Below are positions 4,942 through 53,676 of a stretch of DNA of 64,000 nt, one piece after another. The stretch comes from Pseudogymnoascus verrucosus (lineage: Eukaryota): the NCBI GenBank assembly GCA_001662655.1, contig KV460252.1. One strand, given 5' to 3'. The position numbers were made by a program, and so were the translations under genes. The stretch's first letter is position 1. The number at the start of each line of letters is the position of its first letter. Under the pieces are notes generated by a model that did no database searches, was not told the origin of the DNA, and was given only the letters and a program-made list of their open reading frames with translations.

Positions 4942-6405
4942 TCAATTATATGGCTCAATAAAAATAGCCAGCGCGATAACCGTGTACCTAAGATAATAAA
5001 GTTAGCAAATGGCATGCAGATTTTATCTTCAAAACCACATGAATGACTGCCTTACATTGACAAGAGCATGATGCCATGGAAATATGTGTACTTTCCATCC
5101 TGCAGCACCTGGTTCACGCTCAAGACAGCCAGGAGGAGGATGTAGGTCTGTGACGTCTCGAAGTAAAGGTCCATGGCGCGGCCCATGTACCAGCCGATGA
5201 CCACGAGAAAGGGGAGGACAAAGAGGGCAATCTGTAGAATGCTCCCTATAATGACCCCAATGGCGAAGTTGATCTTCCGCTGCTTTGAGGCCGCAACCAC
5301 CTGCGACAGCTCAGGGGCATTGCTAGCCAAGGGGATGAGAAATATAGCGATAAACGTCTTAGTGATATGCAAGGATTTGGCAGTCTCGTCGAGGCTCGTA
5401 ATAAAATATTGCGTGCACTTTGTAATCAATGCCGCCGAGATGATTAAGATGGCGACGGCTGAGTAGACCTCAGACACCGACGGCGTATCGTCTTCCTCCT
5501 GGCTTTTAATAGCTTCTCTGGTAGCCTCGTCAATCTGCTGTTGCTGGGGGTCCTCAATGCCATCTCCATGTGCCTCATGATGGACGTCGTCCTTTTCGTC
5601 GAGAAAAACAGACGGGTGAGTCCAGAGCTGGAAGTACAAGAAGATGACATAGATGAGCAGTAGCACAACGGCTGTTGCCCGCGAGAAGGACAGGATCTTG
5701 TCATTAATATCCTCGCCCCCCTTGGGGAGGGTCGAGTACAGTATTGTAGGCAGAATGAGCGCCACGGCGGCGACGAGCATCAGCGACGACAATGCGTCGA
5801 CTATAGCGGCGTTGACAGAGAGGATGCTGGTGCCGTGGGCTGCGGCAATGAAACAGCAACCTTGAACCTGCAAGAATAGAATTAGAGGGTGAAACTTGGC
5901 TGCGGCCAGATTGGAAGCGACTGACGAGGAGAATGTCTGAGAGGATGCTACCCAACATGGTCGACTGTGCAAGCCTTATTTCGTTCTGGTTAATGGCCAG
6001 GATGCCTACCTGCAATCCGAATTAGCAACTCTTAGGTGGCGTTTAGTTTAGGTAATAGCTAACAATTAACTCGACGGTATTGCCGAAGGTGGCATTGACT
6101 AGGCCGCCGAGCAGCGAGCCCCATCGATTCGCCAGAGTGTCTGAAGCATCTGAGATGAGAGCAGACAACGGTATGATGGCGAGGAAGTTGAACACCGATA
6201 CCAGTACCGCGTTCCAACCAAGGAATCCGGCAATAAAGCCCAGTGGCGCGAAGCCCAGAAGCACTTTGATTACGATGGGTTGCTCAGCGACCTGCCGCCC
6301 GGCATCGACAAGCAGCCGCCGCCATCCCAGCTCAACATCCTCTCGATGAGCACGACCGCCGCCTAGCTCGGCGGAGTCGTTGAGGAAGGGATCGGATTCC
6401 GACAT
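4942..6405 (-). CDS. Ca2+/H+ exchanger, CAX/Vcx1 family (paralog C)
   Basis: Inferred exons 6405-6064, 6009-5926, 5867-5056 and 4987-4942. Motifs GGLVNATFGNTVE, GSILSDILLV, PLASNAPE and GSILQIALFVLP, plus a long acidic His-containing loop. Confidence 0.92.
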
Positions 6406-7442
6406 GGTTCGATCCGTGTCGTAATTGATTAGAGGGAAGAAGAAATCAGTCTCTAAAAAAAAGTTCGTGTCGGTGGTGACACTATCTGAGTTGCTAGCAA
6501 GCTGTATCTGGCTGGAGTTGCAAGATCGATCACAAGGCTGAGACGGGTTGAGCCGCAACAACACCTCTAAACTTTAGTCAAATGCCATTTAGAAGCTAGG
6601 GAGCTGGAGCTGTCAAACGCGCCGGGGGACTGCTTATTGGAGAGTTCTGTCCCCTGGTTTGTGCCGCCAAAGCTACCTAAGAATAGTGCAGTGAATATTA
6701 ATGACATTTACCACTCCACCCGCCAAGTTAAGGACGCGTAATCCTAGGAGCTAAGCCAGTCAGAATAGTGGGGAGTACAGTATCCTAATGTAAATCTTGA
6801 ACGACGGGTCATTTCCACTGGACGGTACGGTACATGACACTTGCCGAGGACGAGGGGTTTTTCGTACAGCGCACAGTACAACGAAGAATCCTTCGTCCTT
6901 AGCTTTAGGGGAAAGGTGTTGCTTGTTCACAATTGGCTGAACATGAGGACGACGGGGGGATTTTCATTCCTACGGGTACTTACTTCAGAGACTGACTTCT
7001 TACCGGGTAGCTCCTCCTTACCTCACGGAAATATCCCTACGCTAATGCACGTGCTATGAACGGGGTAGGTAACCCCTACCTTAGTGAATACGGAGTAAGA
7101 TTATGGACGGATTTGTTTTGTATGGTCCATGGGAATGGATTCGTGAAGTTGCGAGACTTGGCTGAGGGAAAAAAAGGCGAAAAGGCTGAAATATAACTAC
7201 GAACAATTGGCCGACGAACAATACCTACCGATGAGCTGCTTCTCCGTATTCTAATTCTTAGCCTTCTGTCGTCCTTAGCATATTATCATAGCTGTTTGGC
7301 CTGGGCTATCTTCAACAACGACGACGTAGCACCAGAACAGCAGACTCTCCTTATTGCAGTCACCTGCACCCTGCACCCTGCACCCGACATCGAGACCTTG
7401 CTATGCTTTCGCCATCCACACAGTAGCAGCGTCAAGTGTTCG

Positions 7443-40923: not shown

Positions 40924-41400
40924 TGGACCTGGTGGTAGTCATTGGTGATTGATAGTGGTTGGGGGGGTTTAGGGGGTGCAGAAAACATGAAATCTACGAA
41001 TTATGGAGCTTTTGGCGCTGGGAGGTGTTTAAATGGAGGGGAATGAATGCTTGGTTTATCATCTCAACTCTCGTGGCGTTTGGGGATTAGATTGACCAAT
41101 ATGTTTGGGCGAGGGCAAAGAGAAATGGGCATGGTTGATAGTTAAATGAAATATGATAAATCTTATCTTGTGTGTGTATTTGCTACTTTTATATTCATAT
41201 TCCATTGCATTGGTGATGGATGGGAGTTAACATTGATATGAGAACCCCTGTAGCGCTAGGCGGGAAAACCGTTGACCCGACGAGGCCGTAGATCCAAACC
41301 CCAAGGCTGACAACTCCAACCCCAATCCTACCAAAACTTTACGTCTCTGTACCTTCCTACCAACCTCCATACCTCACCGCACACCCCCAACCCCAACAAA

Positions 41401-42546
41401 ATGCCCGACTCCTCTCCGCGCCCAGAAAGCAAAAGAGAGCGCAAACGCTCCCCAACCCCCAACTCCGAAGACGAGCGCCGCCGTCGACACCGCCGCCGCG
41501 AGCGCGAGGATCGAGATGGCGAGTCCAGAGACGCCACCGACAGCACGCGAAAAAGACACCACCACCGCGACGACGATAAAACTCGCAGTTCCCACAGATC
41601 AGACGAAGAGGGCGTATCAGCTACTAAACGCCGCCGCTCTAGGAGTCCGAGGGATGGAGAGTCCTCCCGCCGACACCGTCAAGGACGAGAGCACGGGAGA
41701 GAGAATAGACACCGCGACCGGTCCCGCGACAAAGATTCGAAACCCAGATCCCCACGCCGTGACCGCGATCGCGACTCTAAACACCGATCCCCGCGCCCGA
41801 GAAGCCGCGACCGAAACCGCGATGTAGACCGCGATACGAGACCTCTTTCCAACGCGCCACCCTCGCCGATGCGGAAGAGCAACGCGCCCCTCCCGAGTCA
41901 GCAGGATAGTTTCTCCATGATCCGCGGTGGCGGGCACGGCGGTGGTGGACGTGGTGGATTCGGTGGCAGTCGCGGAGGTCGCGGCGGCGGACATGGCGGA
42001 GGAGGACGAGGCGACGACGACAACGCCCTAGTCCCCCACGACGGGGCTCCCCCGCCAGAGAAAAAACAACCCAACTTCGCCCCCACCGGCCTCCTCGCCG
42101 CCGAAACCAAAACCGTTACCACCTCCACCGGCGCCGCCATCGTGCTAAAATACCACGAGCCGCCCGAAGCGCGCAAGCCCCCCCCCCGCGACGCCTGGAA
42201 GCTCTTCGTCTTCAAGAACAGGGACATAGTCGATACGATCGACCTGGGCAGCCGGAGCTGCTGGCTCATCGGGCGGGACGCCTCGATTGCGGATTTACCA
42301 GCTGAGCATCCGAGTATCAGTAAGCAGCATGCAGTTATACAGTTTAGGTTCGTGGAGAAGGTGGATGAGTATGGGGAGAGGAAGGGGGGGGTGAAGCCGT
42401 ATTTACTGGATTTGGAGAGTGCGAATGGGACGAAGCTTAATGGGGGAGTGGTGGAGGGGGCGAGGTTTGTGGAGGTTAGGGGGGGAGATTTGTTGGCGTT
42501 TGGGGAGAGTACGAGGGAGTATGTTGTTATGCTGCCGAAGGACTAG
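41401..42546 (+). CDS. PML1: FHA-domain splicing factor SNIP1/Pml1 (RES complex)
   Basis: RS/RD-rich N-terminus, PNFAPTGLLAAE, LKYHEPPEARKP and FHA motifs GR..HPSISKQHAVIQFR..DLESANGT. Confidence 0.88.
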   Translation: MPDSSPRPESKRERKRSPTPNSEDERRRRHRRREREDRDGESRDATDSTRKRHHHRDDDKTRSSHRSDEEGVSATKRRRSRSPRDGESSRRHRQGREHGRENRHRDRSRDKDSKPRSPRRDRDRDSKHRSPRPRSRDRNRDVDRDTRPLSNAPPSPMRKSNAPLPSQQDSFSMIRGGGHGGGGRGGFGGSRGGRGGGHGGGGRGDDDNALVPHDGAPPPEKKQPNFAPTGLLAAETKTVTTSTGAAIVLKYHEPPEARKPPPRDAWKLFVFKNRDIVDTIDLGSRSCWLIGRDASIADLPAEHPSISKQHAVIQFRFVEKVDEYGERKGGVKPYLLDLESANGTKLNGGVVEGARFVEVRGGDLLAFGESTREYVVMLPKD

Positions 42547-44305: not shown

Positions 44306-45791
44306 TCCCCACTCATCACTCACCGCATCTCTCACATCCCACAACGCCCGCGCAAGACAGACTCGGTGTGCTATCCCGTCCGTGGTTCTCCTCCCACCCC
44401 GTGATAGCAAAAATGCGTATGAATAGCCCACAGTAGCCCACAGCAGCCCATCAGAAGCCAATAAATAGTGCCCCCCAGGCTGTCTCACGCCCTCAGCGTC
44501 ACCCAGCCACCACCTGTGTGCGTATGCGTGAGTGAGCCAGTACGCCCGCCCAGCCGCCGCTGTCGGCATATGGTACTAGGCACCACCGCCACGCACGACG
44601 TGTTGGCCGCCGGTATAATGGCCGCCTGGGCTGGCCGCTGTCCCGTATAACTGGTCGCTGGGAATGGCTCACCGGGTGGCCGCCTGCCGCCTGCCGCTTG
44701 TCGCCTGTCTTTCCCGATGGTATGGGATGGTGGTGGTGGATGGCCCTGTAACGGCAGTGGTCGGTAGGTGGGCAGTAGGTCGTTGACTTGTACCTTCTGT
44801 ACGTAAAGTACACGCTGGGGTGTGGGTGGTTGACTGGTACAATTTAGCGTATTTTGGTTGTAATTTAGTGCATTTTGGGTGTTAATTTAGTGTATTTTGG
44901 ATGTAATTTAGCGTATTTATTAGAGGGGTGACTGGTATACGGCAGACGCTTGGTACCTCCCTCACCCTCTCCCGCCCTCCCAAACGGTCCCCCGTACTCC
45001 CCCGCCACGCCCCGATCCCCCGAGACACCCGCACATGACACTGGCAAATCAGCTGCCCATGTTGATTTTGGCGCCAGCAACCATGGGAGATACTTCCAGC
45101 CACCGCTATTTATGGCTGGCTACGCTTGTACCTCCTATGCCCCTCGACATGGATGAAGCATGGATGACAGGGCAGGCGGCGTTCATGGAGAGCCCCTCTA
45201 CTCTCCACTCTCTCTCTCTTTCCTCTCTCTGGCTGAAATGTAGGTAGGTATAAAGTCCACTCTATGTACCCCGCACTCTACTGACACCAATGAATAACAG
45301 GCTTCTCTGCCCCTTCTCTGCCCTATTTATTCACATCCATTCACGCCGAGTACCTGTCCTCTACCTGCCATCTACTTCTTATTCCTCCCAAGAGAAGGCT
45401 GCGAGGGGGGTGGAAGAGGCTGTGAGCCGGTGGTCGTCTGTCGGTGTGCTCGCTGTGGACGCCGCTCTCTCCATTAATATGCACTCCTTCCTGGCTGAGC
45501 CCTACTTTGACCCACGCTCCCCATGATTCAGTGTGATTAGAGGGATCGATCCCCTTTCCGTCTAGACAAGAGAAACAGCGTCTGCATGGCTTTCTGCGCC
45601 CTCCACGTGAACTCTGTTATTCGGCGTGGCAGCCCTCTCAACAGACTAAGCCCGGCGGACGATTAAAGAGTATATATAGCTCTGTCCCCCGACCACCCCC
45701 TGCTGTTCGGGCTCCTACGCAGATATACTACATACACATATATACGCATACCTATCGTTTGGCTTGTTCTGGCCACAAATCAACCTGCAGA

Positions 45792-48700
45792 ATGGTGAGT
45801 TCTCCCACTTTTCACTTTCCACTTTCCACTCCACATTTCCCTGGACCAGTACTGGGCCAGAGACCAGAGACCTTAGAGAGCACCAGCTAACTTCTTCTCC
45901 CACAGGGCACAACTACGCCCCTCGACCAGATCAAGCGCTTCGAGGTCACCGAAGTCTATGCCCACCCCGAAGCCACTGTCGACATCGTCCTCGTCCACGG
46001 CCTCAACGGCCACCCACAGAACACATGGACCGCAAAGAACGGCGTCTTCTGGCCCAGCCAGCTGCTGCCTCTGACATTACGGCAGGCCAAGGCGAGGGTC
46101 CTAGTCTATGGCTACAACGCAGACGTATATACTTTTGGCAGCGATAAGGGCGCAAGCTCTGATATGATACACCAGCATGCACAGAGCTTGCTGACGGGAC
46201 TGAGCATGGAGAGAATGAGCGAGGAGAAGGAGGAGAATGCGATCATCTGGGTCGCGCATAGCTTAGGTGGGATACTGGTAAAGAGGGTGAGTGTCCCCGG
46301 AGGCTCGCAGGAGGCGTGCTTAAGACAGTGACTAAAGCTAACGTATCTAGGCACTGGAACTCTCAAACGACCTCACGAGTAAGAGCGCCGACCCAAGCCG
46401 CTCCATCTACGTCTCCACCTACGGCATTATCTTCCTAGGCACGCCGCACCTAGGCGCTGACGGCGCAAAATGGGGACAGGTCCTGCACTCACTCGTGCGG
46501 ACCGTCATGCCCAAGAAGATCGTCGAGACGGAGGACCAGCTGCTCAAGACGCTGCAGAACAACAACGAGACCCTTCAGAACATCAACCTGCACTTCCTCG
46601 ACATCTACCAGCGCTTCGAGATCGACATGGTGCACGAGGCTATGAGAACCGATCTCAAGGGCACTAAGATCTTCGTCGTCGACCAGGCCTCTGCCTCCCC
46701 GCCGTTACCAGGCGTCCGATACTACGGCATCGAGGGCACGCACTCGTCCATGTGCAAGTTCGAGAGCAAGAACGCCCCAGGCTATCTGAATGTCAGCACG
46801 GCGATCAAGGGGTGGGCGAATGACTGCACGCCGAAGATCCAGGCGAGGTGGGCTGCGGAGAGGAAGGCAAGGAGGCAGGCCAAGGAGAATGAGGCTAAGG
46901 AGCTACTGGGCATCTTCGTAACGGATAAGGATGATACTGTGAGTTAGCCTTAGACGAGCCGTAGCGAAATATACATTCTGACTTTTGAATAGTTGAGTGC
47001 CCCAGTGGCACAGCCGCGGCCACAGGAGGCGTCGGGAACTTCAAACAGTACGTCGGCACCTACTTCCCACCAAGCACCGGCGACGAGCCAGCCGCGGGCT
47101 GCACTCGAGGCAGCGTCGCGCCAGGCTGCGTCGCCGTTCCAGTACCAGTACACAACGGAGGAGGTTGAGGAGAGAGAAGCGGAACTGGTGGAGCGTTGAT
47201 TCTGTCGTTCTGCGAGTTTTCTCTTTTTGATTTTCGTCGGGGTTGTGTTTTTTTCTTACACTCTATATCATGTCACTCTACTCTACTTCTTCTATCCTTA
47301 TAAAAATGAACAGGGCTGATTTCTCTCGTGCCTATGTAGACTCGTCGCTCGCCGTATCAAACGCAAATATCGCCCAGCCTGCTGCCAGACCCGCTGATCC
47401 CGCTACTACTGCAGCCCCTACCGCGTACTTCATCAAGCCCCAGGGGTTTCGTCCTAACTCCCTTTTTGTCGGCCGCGAAGAGGAACTCGAGAAAATGCAT
47501 CGCATGCTTTTCGACCGCAAGCGCCGCGCCGAGGGCGTCGCTGCTGTTCTCATCCAGTGCATCCCTGGCGGTGGAAAGACTCATCTTGCGCGCGAATATG
47601 TCTACAAGCACCTCCAGGACTTCCCCGGCGGCGTCTTCTGGGTCACTGCCAAGTCGCCTGAGCAACTGGAGGCTGGCTTCTGGCATATCGCTGCTACCGT
47701 CGCGTTACCGCCCGCGAATGGCAGCGTGGCGGCGAAGCAGACGGAGGATTTCGTCAGATGCGTTATTGACTGGTTCACGACCCACCACGACTGGCTGCTT
47801 GTCCTTGATGGAATCCACTTCGACCACAACGAGACTCTCAGTCGGTTTATCCCCGATAGCACGAATAGCAGCCTTCTCTACACATCCACCGAGCACAGTG
47901 TCGGTGGCGACCACCACTTCATGAACCCGGAGGTTATCAGAGTACCTCTGCTATCAGCGCGCGAAGCGCAGGAACTTTTCCTTCAGGAACTGGGCCGAAA
48001 GAACCCGACAACAGACGACCTTGCCGAGGCGATGAAGCTGGTGCAGCGAATGGGATTTCTGCCAGAGGTAATTCATGTGGCGGCGAAGAGGCTGAAATCG
48101 ACGCAGGAACCGTTGGCCAAGTTTGCGAGAGCCTATGCGTCAGGGCCGAAGTTGAGGGCACTGGACACTTATGTAGCTGTTGTGGAGCAGCTGCGGAACT
48201 CAGGGGCGGATGAGGCATTAAATCTGATCAGTATACTGGCATTCTTCAGCAGTAGTATCCCAGTGGAGATGATTTCGTTAGGTAAGTTCCCACTCTCTCT
48301 GTGTCTATCAAGCTGAACTAACATCCACAGGCCTCAAATCAGTCGACATCCCCGTCAAAACCTACGAAATGGCCACCGGGCGCTCCCTAAACAACACCTT
48401 CAAAATCCTCAACAGCTACGCCCTAATCAGCCGCTCCGAACACGACCTCAGCCCCCACGCCTCCACCTCCTCCAAGTCCTCCTCCCACCTCCTCGCCGAC
48501 GACCTCGACATAATCCGCATCCACTCCGTCGTCCAAGACTTCTTCATCGACTCCCTCCGCGCCGCCGGCACCCGCGCCGTCTGGCTCTCCCGCGCAATGG
48601 TCCTATTCACCAAATCCTACGACCAGGCTTCCCAGCGCATCCAAGCAAAGACCAATGCGGGTCTCGTCGGCGACTTCCGCTCCTACGAGATACACGCCCG

Positions 48701-50507
48701 CTGTCTCCTAGCCCATCTCGCGCGCTTAGAGCGTAAGGGACCACAGCTCCCCGCTATCCGCGAGCCGCTTGAAGCGTCGCTCCGAGACATCATGGCGGAG
48801 ATTGTGCGGCGGACTCGCGAGTCGTCGCTGGATATCGCTAAAGGCGGCAGCGATGAAGCGTTTATGTTGTCGATTTTCGATCGCACTAGCTCCTCGTCTG
48901 ATACTGGTCCGGAGACGCCCGGTCCTGCAGACTCATATCCGCCAGGTGCTCATCTCTGGGGTATAGAGGTTTCGCAACTGGAAAGCCCAGTTAGCGTGAA
49001 TGATTTCCCACTGAAGTTCCCTGCCATGCCGGAGGTTGATGATGGGTATGACTCAGACTGGTCATCCAACGCCTCCGCCTCCGTCATAATGCGCGGCTCC
49101 CACTACTCCATCGGCCCCGGCATCGCTACTCCCACTAACCCCACAAACACAAACACCATCACCTCCCCGACGCTCCAACTCGACTCCCCCACACCCACAA
49201 AAGAAGAATGGACCGTCGTCCCCCCCCGCCACCCCCGCACCACCCTCCCCCGCGCAGACCTCCACCGCACCACCCGCGCCCTCGAAGCATCCCGCTACCA
49301 CGACACCACAGGCGCCTTCCGCGCCGCCGCCGACCCCCGCGTCTCCCTCTCCCACGAGACCGCCATGGGCGTCCTCGAGCGGCGCGGCCGGGGCGGTAAC
49401 CGCGGCGAGGGGGTAATGGGCATACCCATCCCCGGCGCGAAGGGGAATCTGCCTAGTGGGCTCAGCGCGGCGGAGGTGGCGTTGGGGGAGATTAGTAAGA
49501 GTTCCCCGCCGCCGAGTAGGGGAGGGGGACATATTCAGGATAGGGGGAGGAGAACGAGTAGTCAGAGGAGACCGAGTGAGATGCTGGGGGGGAAGAGTGC
49601 GGGGTGGCAGGGTGAGGCGGTCGCGGGGGATACGATTTTTGAAGCTGTTGGGAGTCCACTTTCGACTTCGACGTCCGGGTCAGGCACTGGATCGGGACAG
49701 AAGAGATCGAGGAGTAAACCCTCCCCGCGCCCGAGGCCAGCTACCCCGGCCGTGACGGCGCTAAGGGGTATCCCCTACGAACCCCGCCGTCCCACATCTT
49801 CCTCTTCCTCCTCCTCCGCCACCACAGGCGCCCCACCCCGACGAGAAGAAAACAACCTCTCCCCCCGCCCGCCAATACGCATGTACACCCAACCCTACCC
49901 CATCTCCACACCTGACTTCTCCGCCCCCCTCCCCCCCGCCAAATACCCCCGCCAAACAGGGCCTTTACCAATCGAATACGCACCCGCCCTCTCCACCGCC
50001 CCCGTCCTCAAAACCCCCGACGTCCGTCCACACGTCGCTAGCACCGTCAGCGCACCAACGCCGTACTTGTATCCCCACGCCCCAGCCCCCGCGATGGGCG
50101 GATCTCAACAAGGCGGCTCGGGATCGAGCTCAGGACAAGGACAGGGACGTGCGTATTTTCCCCTCCTCCCCACGAACCCGCAACGACCCCGCCGCGTGGG
50201 CGGATACAGTTCTCAACCTATGTCGCGCAACGTCTCAGGCTACAGTTCCGCGCCTATGAGTCGCGATGCCTCAGCGGGGTTGTCAGCGCAGTCGGGGAGC
50301 GGGAGTGGAGGGTCGAGAAGCGGTGGGTCTAGGAGGAGTGGGGGAAGTGATGGGGGGATGCCGATGGGGATGGCGAGGGGGAGGGGGGAGATGAGGAGAA
50401 GACCGAGTTTGGCGGAGACGGAACCGCCGCCTGAGTTGCCGAGGTTTAGTCCTGAGACGAGGGAGGGGGTTGATATGGGGTTTGGGGGGATGGGGAGGTT
50501 TAATTGA
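45792..50507 (+). CDS. Alpha/beta-hydrolase (SesB/PGAP1-like lipase) fused to NB-ARC, with a disordered C-terminus (NLR-like)
   Basis: Inferred exons 45792-45794, 45906-46286, 46351-46938, 46993-47047, 47340-48281 and 48331-50507 (about 1381 aa). Motifs DIVLVHGLNG, AHSLGG, FLGTPH, FVGREEEL, P-loop PGGGKT and Walker B WLLVLDG. Confidence 0.85.
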
Positions 50508-51084: not shown

Positions 51085-53676
51085 CAGTGTTCGGCAGATC
51101 GTGATCCGGATCTGATCCGTAGCCCTCACGGGTCAGATCATGATCCGTCTAATATCTGACGGATATATCCGGATCAGATCCGGATCTCTTAAAAATGAGG
51201 CTTAAAAAGTGAGGCTTAAAATAGAATAGTATAATAATAGATCTAATTACTCCTCCCTTTCGTCATTAGCGTCTTCGGCTTCGCTCTCGTCAGTATCTAC
51301 TATATGACCCTAGTCTCGTAAGCAGAGTAAATATCGTAGTGTTTTAGGAGAGAGCCTATTCCTCTTCTTCGTTAGAATATTAGCTCCATTACTAAAGACC
51401 CGCTCTAACGGCGCTAATGTTACGGGAATTGCTAAGTAGTCTCGAGTAATTGTAGCAATAATTAGATACTAATACTGTTTTGCTGCCTAATATTTGAGAA
51501 TATCTGTTACTAGACCTAGCTAGGGCTTAACAAGCTAGCGCTTCCATTCTAGTTCTTAGTAGATACTATAAGAAATATATAAATCGTCGTTAGAGTTAGG
51601 TTCTATAGGTAATTGTAGTAAATTGGCTTTAGCATCCCTCTGCTCTTCTTTAAGGAAGTATTAGCAGTCTCTATACTAAATAAAAACGTCATGGAACTAC
51701 TGCTTTACTCTATTCCGTTTAACTTCTTTAGTATTACTTAGCTAAAGACTATTGAATACGTTAAGATTCATGCGCGGATTACAAATTGTAGCTACCCCTA
51801 AATGACTCTATTAATGATTTGTAGCAAGCGTATAATACTCATTAAGCTTCTTAAAAGCAGCGATATAAGCTAGACTAATTGTTAATGATATACTAACCTC
51901 ATTCTATAGAGCCTTAAGCTTCTTTATCATCTTTAGATACTAAGGAATTGTAAAGTTAAGCGTTAAGTATACACTTGCTTAAAGCTTCTACGACGGCTTA
52001 ACGAATATGTAGAAGAAGTTCTAAAGAGCGTAAAGTGTTATCTAATCCTCTAGTATAAGAGTAATATTTCTTATACTTAGATCCATTTGCTAAGTAGCAC
52101 AGATTGCTATAATTAGGGTCTATAGCTTAATAACAGCTAAAACCATTTCGTACGTTAAGTTCTACTAGACTAGCATATTAAGTGATAATTATAGCTTCTT
52201 TAGACTAGCAGTAATAGTCTACTTTTAAAGAGCATCTTTCTATTACCTTCAATTCCTAAATACATAGATATGCCTTTATAGCTTACTAAGGGTATTCTTA
52301 ACTTTGATATTGCTTTTAGACGAGCTTGTTAGAATCTACGTAGCTCCTTACTCATACTAATAACTTTTAGCTTGCTTAGTAGGAGCAGCTTTTAAAGTCT
52401 TAAGAGCATCTTAAATAGTAATATTAATGATATAGGCTATACATTATACGTCTCCTTCCTTAACTTTAAACGTCTATGGCTGTTATGTCATCACTTCCTA
52501 GTCTTTAGCTATTTTCTCGTATTCCGTAAGCATAACAGTATTAGCTAAAGCGTTGTCTCTTATATAGGTAAAGATAGCTCCTATAATACCTATATCATCT
52601 ATTACAAGTGCTAATTATTAAGCTAGATATTCGCTACTATAGATAGGCTCTTAAAGATGTATAACGTTAAGTACTTTAGACTTCTGTTGCCATTTATCGT
52701 TAATCTAGTGTGCTGTAATAGTAGCGTAGTCTATATAATTCCGTATAGACTATGCATCTATTGTTATTAATATCTAGCCTCCTCTCCTAATATAAGAATT
52801 AAGCTCGAGTTATAGCTAGCCTTAGTAGTATGAGAACTAACGCTAAAGTTCTTAGTGTAGCGTACGAGCTGATATTAATATAGTTGTTAGGCTTAAGAAT
52901 TAAACTAATTTATAGAATAAATGGCTTTTAATAAGGCGTATCAATAGATTATTTAACACAATGAACTATAGTAATAACTCCTTATATTTCGAAGGATTAC
53001 TAGACTGCTTTGATATAGCTAATAGGTGTAGGCTAAAGAACGATGATGTACTGCTTAACGTACTAGACGACTGTCTATTCTCATTTTTAAGGGCGTATGA
53101 TACTGCTAGATGCTTTAAAGAGTAATGCCTCTATAAATTACCTGTTGACGACTGCTTTAGCCCTTGTAGCGCTATTGAAAATCTGCAGTCTAGCTATAGG
53201 CATACCATCTTTATAGTTAGCGGCTGAGTATTAAGTGGTTCCCGACGATATAAGCCCTTTGTAAATAGCTTTAAAGTCGTTAGTGGTAATATAACCCTTA
53301 GACCTTAAAGTATATTACTTAGTGATCCATTAACTACTTCGACTAATGGCAGAATAGGGGTAGATTGAGGTATAAGATGTGGTAACGACAGCTCTTCTAT
53401 TTGAGAATAGCTCTCATGATCTAACGGTAAATCTAATAACTTAGAGTCGCTCATTATTACAGCGGTAATCGTCACAATATAGTAATTAGACTGCTATTAT
53501 AGATTCAATTATACTACGTCTACTGTGGCCTTAGCATCCTTAGCATCCTTGGCAATATCCGTATGATCCGGATCATGATCCGGATCTCACGGATATGCCA
53601 AAATTATGACGGATAGGATAGATCCGGATCATGATCCGGATCGGGTCGGGTCATCTACGATCTGTGCCGAACACTG
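51085..53676 (-). mobile_element. Full-length, RIP-inactivated hAT DNA transposon
   Basis: TIRs CAGTGTTCGGCA...TGCCGAACACTG. 8-bp TSD AGAGACAC at 51077-51084 and 53677-53684. Subterminal GATCCG arrays. Minus-strand hAT dimerization remnant YLAIPVTLAPLERVFSNGANILTKKRNRLSP, with many TAA/TAG stops. Confidence 0.95.

Follow-up and report, generated by a model that had tools for sequence, protein, structure and literature searches.

A single-copy gene on the + strand of the window (a 64,000-nucleotide stretch of Pseudogymnoascus verrucosus contig KV460252.1, assembly GCA_001662655.1) probably makes two conserved, selected products by intron retention: a free protein with a hydrolase fold and a fusion of the same hydrolase to NB-ARC. 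RNA-like contigs of a close relative contain both RNA forms, and Leotiomycete-like and Sordariales-like loci alike keep the position and phase of the intron, its read-through tail and its 3' splice signal. The event is real and conserved and has been modelled in one curated annotation, yet it is apparently undescribed.

Gene structure and protein domains

The gene comprises six exons, which provide two alternative open frames. The coding part of exon 1 is the start codon ATG only (45792-45794), and the joint across intron 1 (45795-45905, 111 nt, with a CTAAC branch) is found in contigs of runs X1, X7 and X18. Exons 2 (45906-46286) and 3 (46351-46938), on either side of intron 2 (46287-46350, 64 nt), encode the N- and C-terminal halves of a SesB/SERAC1-like alpha/beta hydrolase. 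Intron 3 (46939-46992, 54 nt) precedes exon 4, whose segment 46993-47047 is common to both forms and which extends to 47199 if unspliced. The NB-ARC domain is encoded by exon 5 (47340-48281), with its P-loop CIPGGGKT at 47558-47581 and a Walker B WLLVLDG. Beyond intron 5 (48282-48330, 49 nt), exon 6 (48331-50507) encodes the end of the winged helix, three helices and about 545 aa rich in Ser, Pro and Gly, with no repeat domain (fold taken from orthologue P0204). Introns 1, 2, 3 and 5 are supported by both the gene model and RNA-like contigs.

The two frames part at intron 4 (47048-47339, 292 nt, phase 1), whose donor is aca/GTACGT at 47048 and whose acceptor, TATGTAG, has its last base at 47339. 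Its removal yields an open frame of 1381 aa, and its retention a frame of 392 aa, the last 50 residues of which are coded by the intron before a TGA at 47197-47199. This tail of 50 codons plus stop, specific to the short form (47047-47199), has the C-terminal end TTEEVEEREAELVER and includes a conserved acidic motif, FQYQYTTEEVEEREAELVER (47137-47196). It is followed by a spacer between stop and branch site that is T-rich in base composition (47200-47314), and then by a conserved, atypical 3' splice signal (47315-47339) consisting of GCTGAT (47315-47320), a pyrimidine run and TGTAG. The preliminary description had placed the start of exon 4 at 46993, the donor at 47048 and the acceptor TAG up to 47339, and all three are borne out by the re-derived model and the contigs. 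Both frames, of about 392 and 1381 aa, are open as it claimed, with the 50 extra codons and the stop at 47199, and the 292-nt intron is indeed far longer than the other four. The T-rich tract after the stop was also correctly noted (52% T at 47200-47300), although its suggested role as a 3' end was not confirmed.

Contigs start at 45246 in X7, 45572 in X1 and 45657 in X18, pointing to a long 5' leader region within 45246-45791, which contains five upstream ATGs, including uORFs of 78 and 26 codons; part of it has been wrongly added as N-terminus in public models P0001 and P0002. The upstream neighbour (41311-42546) is an intronless, Arg-rich gene with a Pfam FHA domain, which we take to resemble the splicing factor SNIP1/Pml1. 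Downstream, at about 51100-53500, lies an AT-rich (31-37% GC), decayed and probably RIP-mutated hAT transposon remnant, with a Dimer_Tnp_hAT match on the minus strand at 51310-51465.

Within Pezizomycotina the gene belongs to the single-copy 'LipA and NB-ARC' orthologues: these are present in Leotiomycetes, Sordariomycetes and Eurotiomycetes, and the next matches in the same genome are at most 38% identical. Among named homologues the nearest belong to Pseudogymnoascus (94-100% in exon 3), and one public protein, P0121 (KFY74755.1), is the 392-aa form letter for letter. Two other hydrolase/NB-ARC loci of the genome (G000:C17:222102-223457 and G000:C10:312245-313834) are probably ordinary SesB-NB-ARC NLRs.

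The short form is modelled by AlphaFold as a whole alpha/beta hydrolase fold with a disordered tail. We take Ser120 (the nucleophile, 46260-46262, in AHSLGG), Asp239 (46681-46683) and His259 (46741-46743) to be a putative catalytic triad, their roles being assigned from motif position and conservation: in alignment A3 each of the three either never varies or is conserved to at least 90%, and the Ser, Asp and His motifs occur in 119, 116 and 119 of the best 120 of 234 homologues, respectively. The best fold matches are thioesterases and esterases at 10-16% identity, and no relative of solved structure was found by sequence. 'Lipase' is a family label here, and lipase or esterase activity is putative. 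The NB-ARC domain (PF00931) scores above cut-off, with HD1 and a winged helix present. Orthologue P0204, 35% identical to a congeneric long form, was folded in place of the long form, and its model comprises the hydrolase, a disordered linker, an NB-ARC matching the folds of NRC2, Apaf-1 and CED-4, three helices and a disordered end.

Two of the three canonical parts of a fungal NLR are thus present, namely an N-terminal hydrolase and a central NB domain. However, no Pfam repeat family of the TPR/ANK/WD40/HEAT sensor type was found in any of 17 long forms. Compared with the canonical GxxxxGK[ST], the P-loop retains GGK[TS] (the hhhhD of Walker B being also kept), but 102 of 103 long forms have S, C or A in place of its first Gly. 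The long form therefore resembles a STAND switch but not a canonical NLR. The gene is also single-copy and conserved across classes, unlike the patchy, expanded and fast-evolving genes of NLR repertoires. On these grounds, the labels 'receptor' and 'effector' previously given to the two products are putative, as is a 'receptor plus effector' pairing, the long form having no sensor repeats.

RNA forms at intron 4

RNA-like data were taken from Logan contigs of four runs (X1, X7, X18 and X20) among 24 listed, whose RNA status was guessed. These runs derive from relatives of this strain; X7 and X18 represent one organism (organism C, mostly 90-95% alike) in two studies, and X1 a closer relative. 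Such contigs phase no whole molecules and give no RNA ends. Unbroken single contigs of X7 and X18 span introns 1, 2, 3 and 5, all spliced, with zero depth at 45000-45206. The joints of introns 1-4 are matched exactly and that of intron 5 approximately. Run X20, in which no spliced joint is found, was used as a DNA-like control.

The hydrolase contig stops exactly at 47047 in both X7 and X18, 55 letters past the joint of intron 3. The joint 47047>47340 (GT..AG), which the preliminary description had proposed to look for, is found in X7 (depth 160) and in X18 (depth 58), that is, in RNA-like contigs from two studies. Unspliced contigs pass through intron 4 into exon 5 in the same runs (47089-47368, depth 169, in X7; 47107-47368, depth 97, in X18). 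As spliced and unspliced contigs both lead on from 47047, the two RNA forms coexist and some retained molecules pass the acceptor. In X1, a contig with introns 1-3 spliced continues 88 nt past the donor, to 47135, without a joint of intron 4. Contig depth, which cannot rank the parts of a gene, is 658 over the hydrolase exons versus 293 over NB-ARC in X7, and 212 versus 45 in X18.

Several other outcomes were considered and rejected. A late, weak, in-frame donor at 47195 (agc/GTTGAT) would give a 1430-aa protein with both tail and NB-ARC, as in public models P0004, P0122, P0124, P0128 and P0136; it is absent among the joints listed and is not conserved. Exon 4 skipping and intron 3 retention each run into an early stop. 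Translational read-through of the stop into NB-ARC is ruled out since the length of the intron modulo 3 varies between loci. No unusual RNA structure was found in intron 4 (z -0.72).

Conservation of intron 4 and of the read-through tail

Eighty loci were retrieved, from which 15 distant paralogues (L076-L090) were set aside. Among the 65 loci kept, the acceptor signature was present in 28 and absent in 11, while 16 had no anchor motif (two of which proved positive on re-inspection) and 10 were too short. After removal of duplicates, the modelled set consisted of 25 loci plus the window, hence 26 phylogenetically related, non-independent loci, 13 Leotiomycete-like and 13 Sordariales-like according to best hit.

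A phase-1 intron at the same place, 54-294 nt long, fits all 26 loci. The branch is CTGAT in 25 of them and the acceptor TGTAG in 19, versus 3 and 0 of 31 other introns in 18 of the same genes, although these counts are partly circular because the signature pattern itself served to locate the acceptors. Independent support for the acceptor comes from RNA for the window and from protein pairs for the Cadophora and Botrytis types. The median distance from branch to AG is 18 nt in intron 4 versus 10 nt in the 31 control introns. The pattern is found twice in 128 kb of window strands and is absent from all nine paralogous hydrolase loci of the same genome; the C17 locus lacks it. A search of the whole genome gives no support for a wider class of introns sharing this acceptor: six matches were obtained versus six for a control pattern, and the pattern used in that search did not fit the window's own site.

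The stop of the short form is TGA in 25 of the 26 loci (17 of the 18 in which it is distinct from the branch site). In eight of the 13 Sordariales-like loci, stop and branch site share one and the same TGA, which leaves 18-26 nt to the acceptor. Elsewhere this TGA often stands in a branch-like context (for example CGCTGA[TG]TT), possibly as a decoy for the branch site or a duplicate of it. Exceptions are L016, in which the frame is continuous, L064, which lacks the signature, and L013, which has no NB-ARC behind the hydrolase: at 5900-7223 its orthologue-like hydrolase gives way to degraded sequence, and neither a tail nor NB-ARC lies within 1.3 kb. A distant hydrolase paralogue (41%) in L055, at about 6030-6240, shows a phase-1 a/GTACGT donor with an early stop, and its acceptor, GGGGCTGAC...TGTAG, precedes a frame that resembles, by eye, a PNP_UDP domain.

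The preliminary description had also suggested checking the short acidic tail in orthologues, where it proved to be conserved. Read-through of the intron gives a tail of at least 30 aa in 22 of the 26 modelled loci, but tail length alone is weak evidence because the next reading frame, taken as a control, is also open for at least 30 codons in 12 of them. The tail is EVEE-like in 18 of the 26 loci, and where EVEE is exact, in 12 loci, all differences between its codons are third-position ones. C-termini of the short form read F.[FY]E..EVEE.D.E in Leotiomycetes or FPFEIEE in Xylariales-like sequences. Four loci have lost the tail or have one that is not acidic: L022 (6 aa), L033 (11 aa), L049 (2 aa) and L026 (21 aa, counted from the donor given by protein pairs, 18 nt after the modelled one). 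In the two AlphaFold models (short form and P0204), the tail is undocked and of low confidence.

Orthologous proteins fall into two groups. Of 234 homologues of exon 3, the best 120 comprise 31 of less than 600 aa and 89 of more than 900 aa, with none in between. The acidic motif is present in 22 of 30 forms without NB-ARC in this set (one being unclassified), and in the linker of 11 of the 89 forms with NB-ARC. Most of these 11 are models that read the tail and then splice late, and P0040 looks like a false positive of the pattern. A YE[VI]EE motif is also found within the linker of outgroup fusions from Chaetothyriales, Cirrosporium and two further clusters (P0204, P0208, P0211 and P0220), and Vezdaea has a short form carrying it. 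These outgroup linkers suggest that the motif existed before it became restricted to the short isoform.

Pairs of short and long proteins tell the same story. Gene BCIN_02g09140 of Botrytis cinerea B05.10 has two annotated products, ATZ47657.1 (381 aa) and ATZ47658.1 (1560 aa), which do not differ up to residue 337 and continue as G-MYHG versus D-LSNS, as expected from a phase-1 intron; the Monilinia and Cadophora pairs part at the same place. The Botrytis annotation was curated by hand with RNA-seq, and splice variants were sought (10.64898/2026.10.20.760327). The two-isoform model is therefore already public in this one curated annotation, as 'hypothetical protein'. Annotators differ between strains on the gene model, and a two-product gene explains why proteins of about 380, 1400 or 1440-1630 aa have been predicted.

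Mechanism, competing readings and related systems

Under intron retention, intron 4 would be intron and coding sequence at once, and the switch would be a conserved, weak 3' splice site, with its GCTGAT branch, long pyrimidine run and TGTAG, that is not always used. Retention would end translation at the intronic TGA and release a free serine hydrolase, and splicing would produce the hydrolase-NB-ARC fusion. The acidic tail may act as a disordered short linear motif, giving the free enzyme a partner or an address that the fusion lacks. As to function, we see about an even chance that the free form is a constitutive lipid- or ester-remodelling enzyme and the fusion its nucleotide-switched, oligomerising version, splicing setting the ratio between them.

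A retained transcript that reaches the distal end has a very long 3' UTR and may be subject to nonsense-mediated decay. It has to be asked, then, whether retention is an unproductive means of tuning the level of the long protein, with the short protein as a by-product. The weak, conserved 3' splice site, the TGA stop in 25 of 26 loci (overlapping the branch site in eight) and the four loci without a proper tail are in keeping with such a role. However, a motif is maintained at the protein level inside the intron with synonymous variation, which makes a purely unproductive role less likely. A related YE[VI]EE motif stands in the linker of the four outgroup fusions, and the short form contains the whole hydrolase fold. 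We thus consider this explanation improbable. Far more improbable still is that hydrolase and NB-ARC are two independent adjacent genes, or that the fusion is an annotation artefact. NB-ARC-frame ATGs do lie inside the window's intron 4, and gene models do vary between strains; yet the 47047/47340 joint seen in two runs contradicts a two-gene reading, an in-frame intronic Met is found in only nine of 26 loci, and outgroups such as P0211 and P0220 have continuous fusions.

A more serious alternative, though one we hold to be less probable than not by a clear distance, is that the short form arises mainly because cleavage and polyadenylation, either within intron 4 or shortly beyond it in exon 5, compete with splicing. 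The T-rich spacer of the window has ATAAA/AATGAA just upstream of the branch site, some short homologues stand on contigs of only 1.3-2 kb (P0008, 381 aa on 1281 nt), and in plant RPS4 retention is coupled to a proximal poly(A) site in the next exon (PMC8116057). Against this, the unspliced contigs extend to 47368, with no poly(A) loose end among the contig ends listed for X7 and X18, and A-rich words are present in just three of the 18 loci with a spacer, with no conserved signal. Moreover, as stop and branch site coincide in eight loci, an intronic poly(A) site would have hardly any room in the 18-26 nt that are left. Proximal termination in exon 5, by analogy with RPS4, could still be compatible with retention. 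Of the earlier proposal that one locus yields two products by alternative splicing or polyadenylation, the two RNA forms stand, given the contigs of X7 and X18 and the annotated Botrytis pair, while alternative polyadenylation does not find support in the contigs or in these eight orthologues.

The long form might also be a true immune NLR that triggers cell death, the free hydrolase being its effector or a dominant-negative damper, like plant TIR-only isoforms. SesB-like hydrolases are indeed common as N-terminal domains of fungal NLRs (PMC4986451), and the NB-ARC fold is similar to those of NRC2, Apaf-1 and CED-4. On the other hand, the 17 long forms contain no Pfam sensor repeats, 102 of 103 long forms have lost the first Gly of the P-loop, and the gene is single-copy and conserved across classes, while most NLR orthogroups are described as patchy (PMC12258605). 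We infer that a constitutive hydrolase with a switchable fusion is to be favoured over immune cell death, which we rate as rather unlikely.

Among the closest known systems are fungal SesB-like/NB-ARC NLRs, which share an N-terminal alpha/beta hydrolase (DUF676/Abhydrolase_6), an NB-ARC with winged helix (PMC4986451; bioRxiv 2022.03.16.484565) and the database name 'LipA and NB-ARC domain protein' with the window gene. The latter differs in having no TPR/ANK/WD40 array, a single conserved orthologue and an altered P-loop, and its free hydrolase comes from the same gene, whereas in the SesB-like NLR systems described a gene of its own encodes it, the link being an amyloid motif. In the plant TIR-NLRs N, RPS4 and RPP4, retention or proximal termination likewise gives a product with the N-terminal domain only beside the full receptor (PMC8116057). 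Those cases, as presented there, are gene-specific, whereas the present intron is conserved across two fungal classes; here the short form also gains a conserved motif of its own, and the domain is a hydrolase and not a TIR. SKI7/HBS1 and PTC7 are ancient fungal cases of alternative splicing in which one gene gives two proteins, each with parts of its own (PMC3597508); the proteins are unrelated, and the window gene differs in having coding sequence inside the retained intron and a stop that may coincide with the branch site. Alternative splicing of an NLR-type gene is also known from the NACHT-ANK micro-exons of Tuber melanosporum (PMC4986451, PMC13449251); according to these sources, it makes sensor repeats more diverse within a single lineage, with no release of the N-terminal enzyme. 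The Botrytis BCIN_02g09140 entry has the same two-isoform model, without a note of conservation or function.

No published description of the two-product event was found in the literature, although listings of gene identifiers or bioRxiv supplements may hold one. The supplements of PMC9597501, PMC8942408 and PMC8475275 gave no match by domain name, such tables listing gene identifiers. The phrase 'LipA and NB-ARC' gave one text match, in a Colletotrichum transcriptome study that mentions it in passing (bioRxiv 2021.01.22.427748).

In fungi, alternative splicing that is both conserved and productive is regarded as rare (PMC3597508), and the case cited for fungal NLR-type genes in the sources consulted only diversifies repeats. 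The shared TGA of stop and branch site puts one triplet under both coding and splicing constraint. SesB-like domains are among the commonest N-termini of NLRs, with little biochemistry, and this precise, editable switch is a tool with which to compare a free SesB-like hydrolase with its STAND-fused version. More speculatively, and on balance we think it unlikely, the acidic motif, as an in-cis linker element of an ancestral hydrolase-NB-ARC fusion, may have been captured by the intron in the Leotiomycete/Sordariomycete ancestor and now be present on the free enzyme only; regulated retention, its stop codon forming part of the branch site, would in that case determine how much sensor-less STAND switch is made relative to a pool of trans-acting enzyme that the switch recruits or that buffers it. 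If such a cis-to-trans capture proved true, the gene would represent a conserved, splicing-controlled, NLR-like signalling module in fungi.
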